Shown here: positions 2,904-54,412 of the stretch, in pieces
Position numbering within the stretch: the first letter of the stretch is position 1
Layout: the number at the start of each line of letters is the position of its first letter
Source of the DNA: a bacterium
GTDB taxonomy: Bacteria > Patescibacteriota > Andersenbacteria > UBA10190 > CAIZMI01
Length of the DNA stretch: 64,000 bases
Assembly (NCBI GenBank): GCA_030647555.1
Contig: JAUSJG010000007.1
Location: 106,181 to 170,180 of the forward strand
Direction of reading: 5' to 3'
Notes under the pieces: model-generated
The model's database searches: none
What the model was told of the DNA's origin: nothing
Seen by the model: only the letters and a program-made list of their open reading frames with translations
Made by a program: the position numbers and the translations under genes

Positions 2904-3908
2904 CTACTTGATCTGGCGGATTTCGCGGGGGCTTTTGCGCACCCCTTGAAGTTGCTTGTGGCAGCGCTGTTTCAGCATCGCCACCTGCTCCGGCCCGCCG
3001 AACACTTTTGTGATTGCTCGCGCATCAAGACTCTCGAGCGCACTGATGTACTGTGTCGCGCCAGTGAAATCTTTCCATCCAACAGACTCATCGACGAGGC
3101 CTTTCAGTCTTATCGCTTCGACGATAAACAGCTCGATCAGCCGCTCGTCCAAAACGGCCAGCTCGGGATCATCCGGAATGAAAGTGTAACCATATCCGAC
3201 CGATTTCCGGACCATTTTTCTTTTGATGGGCTCAATACCCTCAAGCAGAAGTTTGGCCCCAGCAAGATCACCAGCTTCCATTCGTACCCGACACACCGCG
3301 AGAGACTCCTCTCGAAACCGTCGTGCATCCTCCTTAGCACGAACCTCGGCTTCCACGATTTCCCTCTCGACGGCTTCTTTGGCTGTTCTCTCGGCTTGAG
3401 CCTTGCTGTTAACCGCAGAAATGACCTGCACACGAAGTTCGTCATGTTTCCGTGTCAGTTCCGCGAGCCGCTCTTTCAAAGCCACAAGTTCATCATTTCG
3501 CGGCTTAACAAACGGAATGAGATACTTTTTCGTCTGAAGCAATCCTAAGCCTCGACTTGTCCAAAGCAACCTTTCTCCCGCTCGATCGAACGCATTTCGT
3601 GCGCCCGGATTGGCAATAACACTGGCATGTCCATCTTCAGCCTCGGCCAGGTATTTACCGCAATCGACGAAAATGAGATCGGCCCATTCCTTGTTCCGCT
3701 TATCAAGTTCGCGAAACAACCTGCTTCGCGCAGCCCCATATTGCCTCCTTAGGTCTTGGCTGCTCGTTTCAAGGATCGCATCCGTAAGCCAACTTGTGCA
3801 AGAGGCCAGTTCCGCTGGTTTAGAGGACTGGCTCGCCAACAATTGGGCGGCGTGACCGAGAAGCCACGTATTGTCGCGATCACGATCAATTTCAAACCCA
3901 TCATACAT
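2904..3908 (-). CDS. Hypothetical protein with long central coiled-coil/charged segment; GC-richer than surroundings
   Basis: 334-aa ORF; AGGAG Shine-Dalgarno 8 nt upstream of ATG; consensus-like promoter TTGACA-17-TACGAT on minus strand (rev-comp of ~3940-3975); no family recognised. Confidence 0.55.
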   Translation of the reverse strand: MYDGFEIDRDRDNTWLLGHAAQLLASQSSKPAELASCTSWLTDAILETSSQDLRRQYGAARSRLFRELDKRNKEWADLIFVDCGKYLAEAEDGHASVIANPGARNAFDRAGERLLWTSRGLGLLQTKKYLIPFVKPRNDELVALKERLAELTRKHDELRVQVISAVNSKAQAERTAKEAVEREIVEAEVRAKEDARRFREESLAVCRVRMEAGDLAGAKLLLEGIEPIKRKMVRKSVGYGYTFIPDDPELAVLDERLIELFIVEAIRLKGLVDESVGWKDFTGATQYISALESLDARAITKVFGGPEQVAMLKQRCHKQLQGVRKSPREIRQIK

Positions 3909-10711: not shown

Positions 10712-11072
10712 GTGATGCTCTCATTGTATATCTACGAGAAAGAATAGGAAACATGCGGTTATTTTTCATTCAATGAACCCAGATTTTGAATGATGAATGA
10801 TGATTTATGAATACTGAACCGCGATATCGTAGGGGCGGACGTCCCCGTCCGCCCGCGTCAACAATATCCAGTTTCTAGTTTCCAAATTTGTACCGGAGGA
10901 GGGAGTCCTTTTTCACCCAAAATTTCCGCTCGCTTTGCTCGAAGGAAATTTTCGGCGAAAAAGCCGGGGTTACATAAACAACTAAAGCAGTTTAGTTGTT
11001 TATGTAACCCTTCGACTCCCACACAAGTTGATTATATATAAAAGTCCCCAAATGGGGACTTTTATATATAAG

Positions 11073-11155
11073 TACCGGAGGAGGGAGTCGAACCCACATG
11101 ACCGTAAGGTCACACGATTTTGAGTCGTGCGCGTAAACCATTCCGCCACTCCGGC
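11073..11155 (-). tRNA. tRNA-Leu (anticodon CAA), type II with long variable arm
   Basis: Rev-comp folds as acceptor GCCGGAG/CTCCGGT + discriminator A, D-arm with GG, anticodon stem CACGA/TCGTG with loop CTCAAAA, variable arm GACC-TTAC-GGTC, T-loop TTCGACT; CCA not encoded. Confidence 0.75.
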
Positions 11156-12467: not shown

Positions 12468-12509
12468 CCGATCACGGAGCGGAGCAACCTTGCTCCGCTC
12501 CGTGATCGG
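12468..12509. repeat. Solo REP-like palindrome (20-bp arms) CCGATCACGGAGCGGAGCAA-CC-TTGCTCCGCTCCGTGATCGG
   Basis: Perfect inverted repeat read directly; same GGAGCAA/TTGCTCC core as palindromes flanking the RAYT gene. Confidence 0.8.
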
Positions 12510-14047: not shown

Positions 14048-14063
14048 TTACTAACCAGCTTAC

Positions 14064-14829
14064 CACCTACGAGGTGGAGCAACCTTGCTCCACCTCGTAG
14101 GTGGTGCAAGGCAATAAATTTATTCCAAACAAAGAGCCTTAATTTGTGCAAGCTCTTTTTGATAATTCGCTTGATCATTTGTAAATTTTTCGTATTGTTT
14201 TCCCGAAAACGGCATCAGCCCTGAATAATCGCAAACTGGAAATTTCACACTATCGCTTTTTACATACTCTAAAAATGAAGAATATGGCCAATCGGATGCT
14301 TTCTTGACTAATCCCGCGCTAACCGGATTCAAGTGGATATAGCGCGTTAAATGCAAAAAATGATTATCGTTGCTTACATTAACACTCTGAAAACGCCCTA
14401 CCCAAAGAGGCCCCTTTCGTTCAATTTTTGTATTAAAGTAACGAGCATAAGCATTAGAAACATCAGACAGATATTTTTCAATCCCGTGCTCTTTCAATTG
14501 TTTTACGACAAGATGAAAATGTGTCGGCATTAAGCCATAACAAATGACTTGAATGGATTTATCCTTATCCGCTAACACTCGGCTTATTTCTTCTTCAATA
14601 TTTTCTTTGTGAATTTTTACATCACGTAAAAATTGAGAGTATTTCTGTCGAACACCGGCATATGTGTAATACCTGATTAAATTTTTCATATGAAAAAAAT
14701 CGCCCTCCTTTTGAAATATTCTAAACCCCGCTATGCTTTTATTCATCACATGATAAATTTCACCATTTGCTAAAATATCTTTTCGCATAAAGTTATTATA
14801 ATCCCAAAATCATCTTTGCTCCACCTACG
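14064..14829. mobile_element. REPtron-like unit: RAYT gene bracketed by REP-like palindromes sharing the core GGAGCAA-NN-TTGCTCC
   Basis: Left 40-nt palindrome CACCTACGAGGTGGAGCAACCTTGCTCCACCTCGTAGGTG (14064-14103), right hairpin TTGCTCCACCTACGAGGTGGAGCA (14806-14829). Confidence 0.6.
14120..14788 (-). CDS. IS200/RAYT-type Y1 (HUH) transposase, COG1943-like
   Basis: HUH motif PTHFHLVV and C-terminal catalytic tyrosine context RYIHLNPVSAGLV...DWPYSSF typical of REP-associated tyrosine transposases; flanked by palindromes at 14064-14103 and 14806-14829. Confidence 0.75.
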   Translation of the reverse strand: MRKDILANGEIYHVMNKSIAGFRIFQKEGDFFHMKNLIRYYTYAGVRQKYSQFLRDVKIHKENIEEEISRVLADKDKSIQVICYGLMPTHFHLVVKQLKEHGIEKYLSDVSNAYARYFNTKIERKGPLWVGRFQSVNVSNDNHFLHLTRYIHLNPVSAGLVKKASDWPYSSFLEYVKSDSVKFPVCDYSGLMPFSGKQYEKFTNDQANYQKELAQIKALCLE

Positions 14830-14949
14830 AGGTGGAGCAGGTTGACAAAACCACCCCAAAACGCAACACTGCCCTGTTGCGTCAATGTTGACGTGACGGC
14901 TGTGCGCATACCACAGTCATGCACATTTCTACTTCAGGGAGACATCGCC

Positions 14950-15414
14950 ATGTCTACGTCCGCGCAAACCGGAAAAAAGCCTAACAATCTCACTATCCAG
15001 TGGTGGATAGCAACGCTCGCCGACTTCTTCTCGCAAGCAGTCGACTTCATCAAAAAGGGATCACGATCCCAAGAGATGATTAATGCTTTGCTTAAAGCAT
15101 TTCGACTCTTCAAAGAAGACAAACTCCAGTGTGTCCTAAGCAAGGATGAATGTTCGACCGACATTGATTTCTATTTGAAGGTTTTGCGTCCAGGAACTAT
15201 TTTCCAGCTGGAAAAAGCAGGAAATGAAATTCGAATTTGCGACGCAAACTATAAAACAATCTACTGGCCTGGTCACCGCGCATGGATATCGATTCCGAAC
15301 ATCGACAGCATGGATCGCCTCTGGGACCTCATCTTCGGAATAAATCAAATGACTGGTTCAGGTTTAAAACTGGCTGAACACCAGGGCAATGAAATTCAAT
15401 TACTGAAACGTTAG
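14950..15414 (+). CDS. Hypothetical protein
   Basis: ORF with GGGAGA SD 8 nt upstream of ATG at 14950; followed by strong rho-independent terminator. Confidence 0.5.
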   Translation: MSTSAQTGKKPNNLTIQWWIATLADFFSQAVDFIKKGSRSQEMINALLKAFRLFKEDKLQCVLSKDECSTDIDFYLKVLRPGTIFQLEKAGNEIRICDANYKTIYWPGHRAWISIPNIDSMDRLWDLIFGINQMTGSGLKLAEHQGNEIQLLKR

Positions 15415-22417: not shown

Positions 22418-22622
22418 CCAAGTGTCAAACAACAGCCCCGCCCCGACCAACCGGTCCCGGCGGTATTTTTTTGATTTTTTCGCAAAAAAATCAATCCCCC
22501 ATAGCTTTAGCGACGGGGGATACTTCTCATCCACGTAGGGGCGATTCATGAATTGCCCCAGATTGTTACCGAAACACCCAATAAATCTGATTGATTATCT
22601 CAAACAAACATACCCAATAAAT

Positions 22623-32367: not shown

Positions 32368-32423
32368 GGGGCAATTCCAGCCGTCGCTAAAGCTATGGCC
32401 GGCAGGCATGAATTGCCCCTACA
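32368..32423. repeat. GTAGGGGCAATTC-bounded element, short variant
   Basis: GGGGCAATTCCAGCCGTCGCTAAAGCTATGGCCGGCAGGCATGAATTGCCCCTAC. Confidence 0.65.
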
Positions 32424-37468: not shown

Positions 37469-37500
37469 TAAAAAACAGCCCAAGCGTTGCGCTTGGGCTG
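37469..37500 (-). terminator. Rho-independent terminator of the 4-gene island operon
   Basis: On plus strand AAAAAA then CAGCCCAAGCG-TTGC-GCTTGGGCTG; on minus-strand RNA hairpin is followed by UUUUUU. Confidence 0.75.
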
Positions 37501-37619
37501 TAAGGTGCGACGATTCTTTCTTATGCGTTTGGCCCAAAATCGAGTTCGTCGCGTTCGTCCCACCATGGACCTGCTCTCAACTCGCGGTTTTTAAATAAGT
37601 GGTTTTCTCCGCTCTTTTT

Positions 37620-37955
37620 TCACTCTGGAAACTTAACACCAAAGGTCTGTTCAAGAAGTACTTTTGCTGTCTCCCTGAAAGCTGCCAAGTCGGAACCGTG
37701 AAAGTTGACCTTGTGATGACTTATTTGCGTTGGCCCTCTGGAGTGAGTTACCCAACCTTCCGAGTAGTAATCTCTTTCAGGGCCCTGAACCTCGATTCTC
37801 CACAACAATTCGTCGTGGTATTCAAGATTGCCTTGCCCATTAAGCGCTTCTTCCAGCTTCTCTGCTTCTGGAAAAATGGCTCCGATCAACGCTTGCAGAG
37901 TTTTTGCACTTACTTCATTACCAATGCTCTTAATCTGGATGATTGTGTTGTTCAT
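37620..37955 (-). CDS. Island gene D, hypothetical (111 aa)
   Basis: AAAGGAGA SD 7 nt upstream of ATG at 37955; GC-rich. Confidence 0.55.
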   Translation of the reverse strand: MNNTIIQIKSIGNEVSAKTLQALIGAIFPEAEKLEEALNGQGNLEYHDELLWRIEVQGPERDYYSEGWVTHSRGPTQISHHKVNFHGSDLAAFRETAKVLLEQTFGVKFPE

Positions 37956-38114
37956 GGTTATTCTCCTTTGTGTAGGTTTGAAAGAACACCTGTTTCGCTC
38001 TTTCGACTTGCCGGCCGTAGCCTTGGCAGAGGCTGGACTCATCAGCGAGGACACACATCCTCGAACAAGAAGGGAGTTTTTAGAGAACTCCCGAAACTCT
38101 TTCGACTTTTCGTT

Positions 38115-38606
38115 CTAGGCCTTGCGGGTCATTACGAACAACCACGTCGAGTATCTTTCGCAAAAGACCTGCCCTTCGCAACAGCACCTGTGCTCCAGTC
38201 TTCTGTAGGGTCGGTTCACGTAGAAGGTGGAGACACAGGACGTGCTTCCTCTCCTGATGAAGATTGGCCTCATTCCAACAAGGAATGTTTCCCCGTAGGC
38301 CACTTTATCTTTTATCAGGAGATACGGCGCCAATTCCCTTGGACACGATTCCAGCCCTGCCTGCACGGCTGCGGTAAGAATTTGGTCAATACTGGAATTG
38401 CTTTCAATTCCAAACTGACCAGGACGAAGCAGGAAGAGGTCTAGGGTGAGGTTTTCCGTGACGCCCCTCAACTTTGACACCATTTCATCTGCCTCTGGGG
38501 TGAGATCAACTCGATCTGAATAACTCCTCGAGTTCTCCATAAAGAAGCTGTCTCCGCACCACCCCACTCCCATGGTAATCGTTTGCCACACCTTGAACTC
38601 TGCCAT
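38115..38606 (-). CDS. Island gene C, hypothetical Cys-rich protein (163 aa)
   Basis: AAGGAGAG SD upstream of ATG at 38606; C-terminal HRCCCEGQVFCE cluster. Confidence 0.55.
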   Translation of the reverse strand: MAEFKVWQTITMGVGWCGDSFFMENSRSYSDRVDLTPEADEMVSKLRGVTENLTLDLFLLRPGQFGIESNSSIDQILTAAVQAGLESCPRELAPYLLIKDKVAYGETFLVGMRPIFIRRGSTSCVSTFYVNRPYRRLEHRCCCEGQVFCERYSTWLFVMTRKA

Positions 38607-38705
38607 CTGTACTCTCCTTTTTTCCACCATTCTTCGTTCCGGCTTACGACCTGTTCGTAAGCCGGAAGAAAAAGGGGAAGCTTTTACTTCCCCGATTGTC
38701 CGATG

Positions 38706-39179
38706 TCACACCTTGATGTTGTCGATAGTGATTTCGGCGAGGACCACTTCGCGAAGATCGTCGAGTGGTGGCCACTTGATGATTTCCACCTCCGGTTTGC
38801 CGGAGTGTTGGCGGATTGTGGCCGGCGGATTACTGCCCGTGTGGTCCATGCGCACAAAATTCACTTTGGTGCATCCTCGGGCAATCAGTTTGTAGATCAT
38901 CTCCGCCGCCTTATCTTCTGCCTGTAACTGCGCTTTTTGCGGATCGCAGTCATCTGCCCCGAAGAGGAAAAACTTTCTCACCCGCACTTTTGTGCAGCCA
39001 ACCACGGTCCGCTCCGAGTCGGAGGGATCCGGAAGTGATCCGTAACGGTGTGTTCCCGTCACCTCAAGTAACACCACCCAGAATGACCGCGATTTTAACT
39101 GAGGCGTGTTGGTTCGATCAGCGAGACTCGCGATCCGCCCTCTCGTTGCGCACTCGATCAGACTGATTTTTGCACTCAT
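38706..39179 (-). CDS. Island gene B, hypothetical (157 aa)
   Basis: AAAGGAG SD 6 nt upstream of ATG at 39179. Confidence 0.55.
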   Translation of the reverse strand: MSAKISLIECATRGRIASLADRTNTPQLKSRSFWVVLLEVTGTHRYGSLPDPSDSERTVVGCTKVRVRKFFLFGADDCDPQKAQLQAEDKAAEMIYKLIARGCTKVNFVRMDHTGSNPPATIRQHSGKPEVEIIKWPPLDDLREVVLAEITIDNIKV

Positions 39180-39796
39180 GTTCATCTCCTTTTGTTGATG
39201 TTGACCTGCTCGCGCCACAAAAAAACCTCAAATACGCTATTGAGGTTGTTTGTGTTTCTTCCACCCGCTTTTGGGCCTTCATGAGGCACAAAAGTGAGAG
39301 AAGAACGGGATCACGGGGACGTGCTCCCCTACAGCGATTATCGCCGCCAGAGTCCGAGTTTAACCCCACTTCGCTTCCGCCAGCCGGCGAAGCTACGCGG
39401 GGCAAAGAAAAACGATTGGGAGATATCTTCAGACGCTTACGGCGAGAAGAGATCTCCCAATCGTTTATAGGGTGGGATAATCAATCGGGAGGTCGAAGGA
39501 GCGATGCCTTCGTTTCCGCATAAAACCAGCCAAATCAGCCTTTGATTCGCTTACAATACAGTTGTTTCATATGCGGTCTCTACCTCGCTTGTCCCCGTGA
39601 TGTGGGGCTCGTTAGGTTTTGAAGGCACCATCCGTTTCCTTCTTAAACCGCTTCAGCCTGGATAAGTATAATGATCCTAGAAATCTTGTCAAGGGCATGT
39701 TTTTCCGCTTGCTATTATGTCTTATCGAATATTAAATTAAAAAAAGCACCAGTTTTTTAGACTGGTGCTGTTGGATATCTTCGAATATCCGTTACG

Positions 39797-41074
39797 TTAA
39801 ACGATCCACGCCCGATAGTACTTCCCTTCATCGCCGAGAAGGCAAACCAAGTACGGCCCGGAGCGACAGATATCCCGCGATGGCAAAACGATCTTACCGC
39901 GATGCTTTGCCACGAAGGATCCCGACTTGGTGCGACTCGGCTCCGTGAAATCAAGCTCAAGCAACACTTCGCTCGACTCAAGTTGCTCAACGAGCATGAC
40001 CAAACAGGAGTGCTTGCCGTGCAGAACCACGGCCTTGTAGACGCCCGTCACCGACTTAACCCATCTCTCAACATAACATTCGAGTTGAGTGATACGGTGC
40101 CATCGGCCATCCTTTTTTACGAGAATGTACCGGCCACGTTCCGACCTAACGGACAAAACCGTTTCGGGATTGACCAGGTTCCACCGATGTATGCTTTCGG
40201 TAGTGTTCGCCATTTCCTCCACGTTGCACGCCACGTCGTGAAAGGCATCGTTCGTTTTTTGCACCAAGCGACTGATTGCAACTGCCTTCTTTTCGACTGC
40301 TTCGGCCGAGGCAAGTGCCTTCTCCACCCCATTGCCGGACGCGACGCGTAGCTTGTCGGCCAAATCCTTCAGCCTCGCAAGCACATTCGTGACGCGCTCA
40401 TGAAACAGTTGCATTTCTGCCGACTTCCGTCTGATCGCTTCCAGCTTCTCGCGAATGACTTTGTCTTTCGCAAGCAACTCTCTGATCCGCTCGATTTGAT
40501 CAATCGTGATCATTTTTGGAAGCAATCGCGAATGGCGAAAGCCGAACAACTCACCACACCGGAGCAAGTTCACAAGTGGAAATCGTCGAGTGGCTTTGTA
40601 GAAAGCAATTACCATGTCGGCGTCGTCTGTCGTCGGGGCAAACCCCAATTGAGTAATCGTGTAAACGATGTCGGCAACCTCTTCTGTCAGCCGACCCGCA
40701 CACAATTCCTCTTTCAACCAACCAACGACCGTTCGATCCGCAAGTTTTCTCCAATATCGACGAAGGTTGCCCTTCATGGCGTGAATCGGGGAAACACTCT
40801 CCACTTTCCCATGGCTGACCAAATGGACAAGCTTCTCGTGGCACTCCTCGCCCACGATGAGATAACTTCCATTTTGGGAATTGGAAAGAGTAACGCAGAC
40901 CTTGATCCGCTTGTTGCAGAGATGACAGTTATGCCAGCTTTTGGAGGCGTGGATCCTTACCAGATCCCACTCCATTGCCGCACTATCGAGTTCCCTCGCG
41001 TGCGACGCGTTGACTAGGTTCCGTGCCAGCTTTTGATGGGACCAATGACGTCCCACGGTTGGGGCAGTTTTCAT
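39797..41074 (-). CDS. Island gene A, hypothetical 425-aa protein with putative N-terminal zinc-binding Cys/His cluster and central coiled coil
   Basis: AGGAAGGA SD upstream; CHLCNKRIKVC...GEECHEKL cluster; heptad-like region ~aa 190-280; TTGACA box ~50 nt upstream. Confidence 0.6.
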   Translation of the reverse strand: MKTAPTVGRHWSHQKLARNLVNASHARELDSAAMEWDLVRIHASKSWHNCHLCNKRIKVCVTLSNSQNGSYLIVGEECHEKLVHLVSHGKVESVSPIHAMKGNLRRYWRKLADRTVVGWLKEELCAGRLTEEVADIVYTITQLGFAPTTDDADMVIAFYKATRRFPLVNLLRCGELFGFRHSRLLPKMITIDQIERIRELLAKDKVIREKLEAIRRKSAEMQLFHERVTNVLARLKDLADKLRVASGNGVEKALASAEAVEKKAVAISRLVQKTNDAFHDVACNVEEMANTTESIHRWNLVNPETVLSVRSERGRYILVKKDGRWHRITQLECYVERWVKSVTGVYKAVVLHGKHSCLVMLVEQLESSEVLLELDFTEPSRTKSGSFVAKHRGKIVLPSRDICRSGPYLVCLLGDEGKYYRAWIV

Positions 41075-41244
41075 GGATCCAAATCCTTCCTATGTCCGGC
41101 ATTTCAGCCGGAGCGGTATGTAGTTGTCAATAGTACAAAACGGCTAATTGTACTACAATTTAAAACAATTGTCAAGGGAGTTGTGGGTAACCGCTCACAG
41201 GTCGAAGTAATCTGAACATTAAGGTTCGGCATTTACCAACGTAC

Positions 41245-41284
41245 CGATCACGGAACGGAGCAAGGTTGCTCCGTTCCGTGATCG
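41245..41284. repeat. Solo REP-like palindrome CGATCACGGAACGGAGCAA-GG-TTGCTCCGTTCCGTGATCG
   Basis: Near-identical to 12468-12509 copy with compensatory changes in both arms (GAGCGG to GAACGG, CCGCTC to CCGTTC). Confidence 0.8.
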
Positions 41285-41439
41285 AACGGAGCGGTTGCGC
41301 GGATTACAATTCACTCCACTTCGCCCACTTTTCCTGATAAGGGGTATATTCTATTTATGATTATCCTTAACCTGTAAGCAGTTAATCCCCGTTTTCCACA
41401 CAAAAAATTTACTGAAAAACGTTCTCAATATTCTTTCCT

Positions 41440-42036
41440 TTATTTCCCCCGAAAAACTGCCAATGGCGACACTTTTTCGGATTGTTTTGCCAACAGGTGC
41501 CGAAGCTCTTCTTGCAAATCAATACCGTTTTTTTCCGCCAAGATTATTGCCAACAAAAAGAGGAGGCCCGACGATTGTTTTGCCACATCCTTATTTTCAG
41601 AAAGATACTGAACTGTTTCCAGAACTAATTTGTTTCCAGGAAGCCCACGATAATGACTTTTTACCGCTTTGATACAATCAGCCAGAGTAGGACTCTGTAA
41701 AGCAAATAATGGTTGTTGATCAATATTATTTTTACTGTTGCAAACAACCCACGATCTTCGATCGCGTTTAATAACAGAAAATGGCATCTTAAATACGCGC
41801 GGTTTTGAAATGCCGAGCGACACCACGTATCTTCCGCCCCGCAAAAAATCTTTAACCTTCAACACACGCGCCAAACCCACCACCCCGCCGCCGGAACCCT
41901 TGAAATATAGTAGATCACCCTTGTTCACCACCCCCACGGGTGGCTCACGTCTTTTTCGCACCCAAACAATGCGCGCACGACGCTTTTTACAAAGCTTGTT
42001 TAGTTCTCGTTCAGGGTAGACAACAAGATGATCCAT
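41440..42036 (-). CDS. Hypothetical protein with possible PUA-like (EVE/ASCH) fold
   Basis: GDLLYFKGSGGGVVGLARVLKV resembles EVE core; weak. Confidence 0.35.
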   Translation of the reverse strand: MDHLVVYPERELNKLCKKRRARIVWVRKRREPPVGVVNKGDLLYFKGSGGGVVGLARVLKVKDFLRGGRYVVSLGISKPRVFKMPFSVIKRDRRSWVVCNSKNNIDQQPLFALQSPTLADCIKAVKSHYRGLPGNKLVLETVQYLSENKDVAKQSSGLLFLLAIILAEKNGIDLQEELRHLLAKQSEKVSPLAVFRGK

Positions 42037-54147: not shown

Positions 54148-54412
54148 CACTCACTGGTCGAGATTTATCTGGGACCGTCCCTGCACGCCAGGGTCGGTCA
54201 CAGATAAACAAAATTACTTACAAATCAAACTAATTACTCACACTTCCTCAACCTGTGAGCGGTTACATTCATAATGCCTCAGTGGATTGGGACACCAACT
54301 ATTGAAGCATTACATTAGTATGGACCCCCGACTTCTCGGGGGTGGTGGATTTTTCTGATACTTACTGTAATATCGACTTTCAGGCGGGTGAGGAGCTACT
54401 TACGCGTTATAT

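Follow-up and report, generated by a model that had tools for sequence, protein, structure and literature searches.

The question raised by this locus is whether a gene for a small nuclease and the palindromes around it, in the genome of an uncultured bacterium, belong together as an enzyme and its cognate repeats. The locus lies in a stretch of 64,000 nucleotides (the window) from an Andersenbacteria genome of the Patescibacteriota, and consists of a gene for a 222-aa Y1 HUH protein with a hairpin on each side, palindromes of the same plan being present elsewhere. This is the arrangement of repetitive extragenic palindromic (REP) sequences and the REP-associated tyrosine transposase (RAYT), as a preliminary description made from the sequence alone had already proposed. 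That proposal is supported by the protein family, the flanking hairpins, the dispersal of the palindromes, the synteny of the gene and the hairpins of all eight homologues examined. The locus is probably a REPtron/REPIN-type system. Its layout is that by which a REPtron/REPIN is defined, although it is not a canonical member in respect of the RAYT equivalog cutoff, the GT[AG]G foot and the apparently low copy number. The coordinates of the features are collected in Table 1.

The HUH motif of the 222-aa protein lies in MPTHFHLVV, as H90-F-H92, and TRYIHLNPVSAGLVKKASDWPYSS is also present. The predicted catalytic tyrosine is Y150 of RYIHLNP, which is followed by DWPYSS. The protein passes the gathering score of Pfam PF01797 (Y1_Tnp) over residues 60–152, with 28.8 bits against a cutoff of 23 (E 1.5e-6). 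In a sequence search of the PDB (phmmer) the sole clear match is E. coli TnpA_REP (4ER8, E 1.6e-8), where the alignment takes in the HUH strand and RYIHLNPVSAGLVKKASDWPYSS against DYIYINPVKHGWVKQVSDWPFST, with the HUH and Tyr regions aligned; the IS608 and ISDra2 transposases reach only E ~0.15 in the same search. An AlphaFold model generated from 120 homologues has a pLDDT of 92.7. When compared to the PDB using Foldseek, 4ER8 is again first (1.8e-8), followed by ISDra2, IS608 and DR_0177, and the top 18 matches are all Y1 transposases. Across the 120 homologues T89, H90, H92, Y150, H152, L153, N154, W167 and S171 are invariant, and P155 is conserved in at least 90%. The Pfam match, 4ER8 and the invariant residues therefore bear out the earlier identification of a Y1 HUH protein with HFH and DWPYSS.

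The tyrosine motif, YIHLNP, is of the Y---NP and not the Y---Q type. Y---NP is characteristic of TnpA_Y1 class 2, the RAYT branch, and Y---Q of the IS200 transposases (PMC6006769), which places the protein in class 2 and not with the IS200 transposases. Within the RAYT branch, it is a predicted Y1 HUH nuclease with a single-domain core. Clustered at 50% identity, the homologue family comprises 145 clusters at E<=1e-30 and 5,113 at E<=1e-10, the named homologues being from Andersenbacteria, Berkelbacteria, Yanofskybacteria and Omnitrophota. A Pfam profile search gave no match like a helix-turn-helix (HTH) or DnaA_C domain in the tail of the protein.

The doublet on the 3' side of the gene lies 15 nt past the stop codon, between convergent genes, and as single-stranded DNA (ssDNA) folds at -26.4 kcal/mol (z -9.8). 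The singlet on the 5' side, CCACCTACGAGGTGGAGCAA, is 29 nt upstream of the start codon and folds at -11.2 kcal/mol (z -5.9). A 19-nt string, CCACCTACGAGGTGGAGCA, is shared by the upstream hairpin and the two arms of the doublet. This makes a small hairpin, CCACCT-ACG-AGGTGG, with the tail AGCAA, the basic unit; on its own the small hairpin folds at -4.8 kcal/mol. The 44-nt palindrome is two such hairpin-plus-AGCAA units, inverted and joined by 2 nt. Each arm holds the singlet hairpin and its tail, which is the layout of a REPIN. The 40-nt palindrome reported in the preliminary description at 14064–14103 is real, but it is too short and lies within the 44-nt one. The 24-nt hairpin reported at 14806–14829 also exists, about 10 nt from there, at 14817–14839.

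Other arm types follow the same plan (CCGCTC-ACG-GAGCGG, CCGATCC-C-GGATCGG and CCGCTCC-A-GGAGCGG, each then followed by AGCAA). In general the unit has a 6–7-bp stem, a loop that is usually ACG or CGT and a conserved 3' AGCAA tail, and inverted pairs of it make perfect palindromes of 42–50 nt. The palindromes of the window fold as ssDNA at -24 to -27 kcal/mol (z -9.7 to -10.3). Their matches exceed chance, with three occurrences of the core GGAGCAANNTTGCTCC against 0.21 expected and with 0–0.03 matches expected for the 18–19-nt arm sequences. All copies away from a RAYT gene are doublets, apart from one probable chance match within coding sequence (L010 4291; L numbers denote the loci compared and P numbers the homologous proteins). 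In many copies the preceding dinucleotide is GT or GC and the following one AC or GC, those within genes having the form GTACC...GGTAC. These flanks are not universal and a target-site consensus is therefore not claimed.

In the sister genome bin-405 (CAIZMI01), the orthologue P0005 (L002) is 76% identical to the window protein and has the same synteny, the shared gene order being two NTP-transferases, a small open reading frame (ORF), the Y1 gene and a convergent UDP-glucose dehydrogenase. The neighbouring proteins are 88–93% identical and the DNA is ~80% identical between window and L002. Despite this divergence of the surrounding DNA, the 14062–14105 palindrome is identical at 44 of 44 positions. 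The upstream singlet has an identical stem and an inverted 3-nt loop (CGT versus ACG, in gene orientation), while in the orthologous copy of the 12468 palindrome a single change is matched on the opposite arm and the centre is inverted. From the synteny of these two sequences the Y1 gene is taken to be at a conserved position and vertically inherited.

Two observations concern the DNA next to the Y1 gene. The small ORF at 14950–15414 (+) and the ORF that takes its place in the sister genome share only 37% identity, compared to 88–93% for the neighbours. Between the 5' hairpin and this divergent ORF, a 40-nt intergenic block (14880–14920) is near-invariant against the sister genome, although the intergenic DNA flanking it has diverged. 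It holds the inverted repeat ACGTCAA-ca-TTGACGT and is a candidate operator or promoter element.

More distant homologues have hairpins of their own. P0007, a second copy in bin-405 that is 61% identical to P0005, has CCGATC-type doublets on both sides. P0006, which is 61% identical to the window protein and 77% to P0007, has the doublet ACCACTTCCGAAGCGGAGCAA-gg-TTACTCC... upstream and the singlet CCCACTTC-C-GAAGTGGG downstream. Four homologues at 45–50% identity are found in unrelated contexts, each with its own lineage-specific hairpin on both sides, ~10–45 nt upstream of the start and 10–15 nt after the stop, and two of these four loci hold a third, solo copy. Cognate hairpins thus bracket eight of the eight homologues examined, down to 45% identity (the window, L002, L007, L028, L013, L015, L016 and L017). 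No near-identical duplicates of the gene were seen; the two copies in bin-405 share only 61% identity and have different hairpins.

The preliminary description had asked whether the palindromes are a dispersed family or unique to the window, and they are dispersed. A second contig of the window's genome (L026) has three more doublets in 6.8 kb; it is tied to this genome by the same sequencing run and by the protein accessions (MDO8511841 versus MDO8511987). There are therefore six doublets in ~71 kb of the window's own genome, and at least nine are found on five contigs of bin-405. CCACCT doublets with identical arms are present at other loci of relatives (L010, L011, L012 and L027), where only the 2-nt centre varies. 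A scan of metagenomes of the Joint Genome Institute (JGI) gave two further contigs with true copies, together with three unrelated GC-rich terminator-like hairpins. The occupancy of sites differs between relatives, with L023 and L025 lacking the 41245 copy at the orthologous positions. At a distance of ~150 nt from this copy, the synteny of these loci with the window stops, at the border of a region whose gene content differs in each genome.

Some palindromes are part of coding sequences. The O-antigen ligase gene has two palindromes per gene, each encoding 15–17 aa (~16 aa), and its reading frame stays open through them. These segments are confined to this clade, and homologues at 40–47% identity lack them. 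One of the ligase loops has the CCACCT type with opposite centres (SKV versus SNL) in bin-405 and a third genome, and the CCGATCCAGG type instead in the window's genome. In L011, a palindrome at 3514–3557 replaces the 3' end of a murA gene and changes its C-terminal tail. Two murA paralogues, 56% identical, lie side by side in this sister genome (L011 993–2288 and 3433–4881). Assembly artefacts caused by palindromes were also seen: L012 starts at 1–143 with a fold-back copy of its own sequence around a palindrome, and the contigs L007, L026 and L006 end inside palindromes.

The two solo doublets of the window are exactly where the preliminary description had them. It had the one at 12468–12509 overlapping the 5' end of a gene, which is not the case, as the overlap is only with an ORF called mechanically from a TTG. 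In the sister genome the start of the orthologous gene is called ~50 nt further on, where the conserved ATG and the onset of coding conservation are also found; the doublet is therefore intergenic and lies between divergent genes, ahead of the gene for UDP-glucose dehydrogenase. The doublet at 41245–41284 had been placed at the boundary of a gene island. It does lie ~150 nt inside the edge of a variable region, but the analysis established no causal link with the island. A palindrome of the 41245 type, one bp longer per arm, flanks P0007 (L007 755–796), and the type is also found in L018 and L021. The variable region itself (37500–41440) lies between a conserved 640-aa gene and a 198-aa gene/RecO, and has a GC content of ~0.50 compared to ~0.43 around it. 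In L023 and L025 the region contains entirely different genes, except for a conserved non-coding block.

Table 1. Y1 HUH gene and palindromic features in the window and related loci (positions in the window unless a locus is given).
Feature	Position	Strand	Basis
Y1 HUH gene (RAYT-like, TnpA_Y1 class-2-type)	14120..14788	-	ORF, 222 aa; Pfam, NCBIfam, PDB, AlphaFold
3' doublet, 44-nt perfect palindrome	14062..14105	.	inverted-repeat scan: 21-nt arms, 2-nt centre, 100% complementary
5' singlet REP-like hairpin TGCTCCACCT-ACG-AGGTGGAGCA	14817..14839	.	10-bp stem, 3-nt loop, 23 nt
Solo doublet CCGATCACGGAGCGGAGCAA-cc-TTGCTCCGCTCCGTGATCGG	12468..12509	.	20-nt arms; inverted-repeat scan, ssDNA folding
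Solo doublet CGATCACGGAACGGAGCAA-gg-TTGCTCCGTTCCGTGATCG	41245..41284	.	19-nt arms; inverted-repeat scan, ssDNA folding
In-frame palindromes in O-antigen ligase gene	L026 869-918, 1298-1341; L010 7002-7045, 7412-7455; L027 2408-2451		

The arms of the palindromes vary together. When 13 distinct copies are aligned, the share of paired cells is 97.4%. No variation is seen at the outer CC/GG, at one internal G/C or in the inner GGAGCAA/TTGCTCC. Of the 21 pairs, ten vary, always on both sides (37 cells), with no one-sided change and no G-T state. The arm changes described as compensatory in the preliminary description are therefore fully compensated in the aligned copies. Variation that is wholly two-sided and without G-T states points to symmetry at the level of the DNA, and RNA-structure covariation was rejected as the main reason for the compensated arms. 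Intrastrand template switching (quasipalindrome correction, loop flip-flop) yields both two-sided variation and inversion of the loop or centre. The compensatory pattern is evidence of DNA-level copying of one arm from the other and should not, on its own, be seen as evidence of selection on structure.

Several properties of the locus weigh against its being a REPtron/REPIN-type system. The preliminary description had proposed matches to Y1_Tnp and RAYT profiles as a check, and while Y1_Tnp is above its cutoff, the RAYT equivalog NCBIfam NF047646 (REP_Tyr_transpos) scores 63.1 bits (E 2.5e-17), under the curated cutoff of 80. On these scores the protein is related to the E. coli-type RAYT, and is not an equivalog of it. 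The subclass that is nearest by motif, subclass 2.1 or group 1 of Bertels, was reported as REP-less (PMC6006769). The repeats do not have the 5' GT[AG]G foot of canonical REPs; their feet are (A)CC.../...GG with the 3' AGCAA tail, and GTAG is found only across the loop and stem of one arm (CCACCTCGTAGGTGG) and in none of the CCGATC-type copies. Copy number appears to be low in the partial genomes covered, with three doublets in the 64-kb window, compared to tens to hundreds of REPs per genome for the classical RAYT groups 2 and 3 (PMC5581495). In a pattern scan of one genome per species for 185,579 species, only bin-405 was matched. This pattern undercounts, as it required G where the 41245 type has A and ACG where variants have CCG or CAG, and variants missed in this way were found by local scans. 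The arms of the solo doublets at 12468 and 41245 match the palindromes flanking P0007, of which the downstream copy is 1 bp per arm longer than 41245. This makes it doubtful that these two were mobilised by the window enzyme, as had been proposed for them as REP elements, although they do belong to a dispersed family. The CCACCT stem type is probably the cognate of the window enzyme, and the two CCGATC-type solo copies of the window probably belong to a paralogous enzyme like P0007. In addition, the gene diverges faster than its neighbours (76% against 88–93%), the two hairpins flanking the distant homologues are in direct orientation, as at the ends of IS200/IS605, and perfect arm symmetry and loop inversions can arise through replication template switching without a transposase.

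The fast divergence of the gene and the hairpins on the same strand and in the same orientation at four distant homologues also favour a different explanation, that of an autonomous IS200-like insertion sequence. The hairpins and gene would then be one mobile unit, with the solo palindromes being derivatives like miniature inverted-repeat transposable elements (MITE-like, PATE-like) that are moved in trans. It is consistent with this that bin-405 has two copies and that the fold also matches the IS608 and ISDra2 TnpA structures. Such an element is nonetheless rather unlikely here, with the gene being between the same neighbours in two species with ~80% identical DNA and with both of its flanks being the same ~25–45-nt element, as opposed to distinct left and right ends. 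In bin-405 the two copies differ in their hairpins and share just 61% identity, identical copies were not encountered, and the tyrosine motif is the Y---NP of class 2, not the Y---Q of IS200 transposases (PMC6006769). No tnpB partner adjoins the gene at the window and L002 loci. With Y---NP, no tnpB, no identical copies and conserved synteny, the locus is not an IS200/IS605 element. On another view, the palindromes would have nothing to do with the Y1 protein and would be structural or regulatory elements of the host, such as bidirectional terminators, stabilisers of mRNA, or cruciforms or sites bound by some other protein. Replication template switching or recombination would spread them and keep them symmetric, and the adjacency of the gene would be incidental or only regulatory. 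All 10 variable pairs are two-sided, without one-sided or G-T intermediates, and loops and centres are inverted between orthologous copies. The position of the 14062–14105 doublet between convergent genes is that of a terminator, and the 5' hairpin is just upstream of a -10-like TATAAT, where it may be an autoregulation site. However, there is no T-run after the stems, a terminator scan calls none of them, no Rfam family is matched, and copies are found upstream of genes and in-frame within coding sequences. Eight of eight protein homologues, the most distant at 45% identity, each have co-varying hairpins of their own on their flanks, which is difficult to reconcile with a protein unrelated to the hairpins. 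Host elements of this kind are improbable.

The apparently low copy number and the restriction of the family to one lineage could also be those of a domesticated relic, an enzyme that still binds its flanking hairpins, for autoregulation or another role on ssDNA, and moves nothing, the scattered palindromes being fossils. The orthologous palindromes at 14062 and 12468 have indeed been in place since the species split. The catalytic residues, however, are all invariant across the 120 homologues, and site occupancy varies between close relatives, both for the 41245 copy and for the palindrome types at one ligase loop. At least three genomes share identical arms of the CCACCT type, suggestive of a recent spread or of homogenisation that is active. 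A relic is therefore very unlikely. Three narrower candidates were rejected. An intrinsic terminator at 14062–14105 has no T-run and is not called by the terminator scan, with copies also upstream of and inside genes; a known RNA family was not found, the Rfam gathering scan of the whole window giving only tRNA-Leu; and a phage origin has no palindrome in IMG/VR to support it, with one protein relative only, 27% identical.

For a REPtron/REPIN-type system, a mechanism can be proposed from related enzymes. On ssDNA, E. coli TnpA_REP binds a REP hairpin together with a conserved foot, and cuts at a dinucleotide close by (PMC3479197). By analogy with TnpA_REP and IS608 TnpA, the window enzyme would bind the folded small hairpin with its AGCAA tail on ssDNA, such as the lagging-strand template. 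Cleavage would take place nearby via Tyr150, with the metal held by His90 and His92, and probably Asn154, and with a 5'-phosphotyrosine link being formed. The strand would then be rejoined elsewhere, by which doublets may be moved or copied, whereas the gene itself would stay put and be vertically inherited. Binding, the chemistry and site of cleavage, the ssDNA intermediate and the pairing of each enzyme with the palindrome type it moves are all inferred.

The E. coli REPtron (TnpA_REP/RayT/YafM, 4ER8; subclass 2.2 of Quentin, group 2 of Bertels) is the best PDB match by both sequence and structure and has the same Y1 HUH fold. It also has Y---NP followed by DWP-[FY]-S, cognate hairpins on both sides of the gene and elsewhere in the genome, inverted hairpin pairs, and a low gene copy number with a conserved position. 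Identity to TnpA_REP in the structural alignment is only 18%, however, and the window protein is 222 aa rather than 165, with a ~35-aa insertion before the HUH strand and a ~50-aa two-helix C-terminal tail predicted by the model. Compared to E. coli REPs, there is no 5' GTAG foot but a conserved 3' AGCAA tail instead, a 2-nt spacer, and few copies, not hundreds. In Pseudomonas, the dispersed unit is the REPIN, two inverted REPs folding into one long hairpin (Bertels & Rainey 2011, PMC3116915). The REPIN-RAYT systems of this genus (group 3, subclass 2.5) share with the locus the inverted-REP doublet as the dispersed unit and the presence of diverged RAYT paralogues in one genome with their own REP types, here P0005 and P0007 in bin-405. 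They differ in that the palindromes here are perfect, have a 2-nt spacer, are in far smaller populations and are in some cases intragenic, and in the taxon and protein subclass.

When only motifs are compared, the closest signature to the window protein is that of subclass 2.1, RAYT group 1 or TIRYT (Y[IV]HLNP, SS after DW, W..FQ, ~220–240 aa). Members of this group were reported without REP-like hairpins, with terminal inverted repeats (TIRs) in some cases (Quentin 2018, PMC6006769; Di Nocera 2013, PMC3733652). In contrast, eight of eight homologues are hairpin-flanked here, the residue before the HuH is Thr (THFH) and not Asn (NH[VYF]H), and there is no HTH/DnaA_C-like Pfam match. Flanking hairpins that are not of the GTAG type and have copies elsewhere are shared with subclass 2.6 and class 3 TnpA_Y1 ('atypical secondary structures', PMC6006769), which have different motifs, YIH[QN]NP and Y----Q, and are from different taxa, Bacteroidetes and Planctomycetes or Acidobacteria, respectively. 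REPs lying in-frame within genes have been described in Rickettsia and other bacteria (PMC3733652, PMC6006769). The Rickettsia palindromic elements (RPE; PMC3733652) resemble the copies in the ligase gene as short in-frame palindromes in coding genes, encoding ~16 aa in a tolerant loop, sometimes twice per ORF. RPE and CGTC repeats are without an associated transposase, whereas the repeat family here flanks a Y1 gene. With IS200/IS605 (IS608 and ISDra2 TnpA) the locus shares the fold and, by analogy, would share the HUH/Tyr chemistry and the recognition of subterminal hairpins on ssDNA; the direct orientation of hairpins is shared by the distant homologues only. Those elements have Y---Q, obligate dimers, frequent tnpB and multiple identical copies, none of which is seen here.

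A broader reading, which is possible but should be seen as tentative, joins these lines. The ~220-aa protein clade, with at least 145 clusters at 50% identity and E<=1e-30, may be a distinct, unclassified subclass of TnpA_Y1, nearest by motif to the 'REP-less' 2.1, common in the candidate phyla radiation (CPR)/Patescibacteria and other uncultivated phyla, and apparently universally bracketed by hairpins. In this lineage the doublets may still be mobile in a streamlined genome of ~1 Mb, inserting in-frame, and the palindromes would be kept by arm-templated copying with frequent inversion of the centre or loop, and not by selection on RNA structure.

Other features were found in the window and in the related loci. 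Within the variable region there is a candidate non-coding RNA gene at ~39405–39693 (-), ~275 nt and ~96% identical to L025 5785–6065, although L025 proteins are only 75–85% identical and the other island genes are different. It has TTGACA-17-TATACT ahead of it, a hairpin (39410–39466) and T-run at its end, and no Rfam match. A second, unrelated palindromic motif (GGGGCAATTCA / TGAATTGCCCC) has eight hits against 1.8 expected, often as inverted pairs; its sites are 11201, 15467/15571, 22538–22559, 32368–32419 and 42559 of the window, and L002 5696–5723. A third palindrome type (similar to ..AGGGTYCGACCCT.., with 14–20-nt arms) is located at L027 1084–1174, L018 2607–2647, L025 5516 and 10319, and L002 6702–6736, with one loosely similar copy only in the window, at 54164–54208. 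The 18-nt 3' end of tRNA-Leu(CAA), GTACCGGAGGAGGGAGTC, at 10891–10908, has a direct repeat at 11072–11090, ~180 nt away, with several hairpins between the two. This repeat looks like an att-type scar of integration or excision.

REP/RAYT systems have been characterised almost wholly in Proteobacteria, with some work in Cyanobacteria and Bacteroidetes, and a full-text literature search returned no paper linking them to CPR/Patescibacteria. With this locus the known REP/RAYT arrangement gains a new example that is specific to one lineage; the kind of system is not itself new, and the current understanding of these systems is unchanged. In practical terms, perfect palindromes of this type break or fold back metagenome assemblies and create spurious ORF extensions. 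The ligase copies are an example of the in-frame insertion of palindromes being tolerated in a small genome. Because the metagenome clade is large and cognate hairpins were found in eight of eight cases, it offers many natural protein-hairpin pairs for studies of how substrates are read. The same REP/RAYT logic is found in an uncultured lineage with a small genome, where a stationary Y1 HUH gene is bracketed by hairpins, doublets are scattered, and AGCAA stands in for GTAG.

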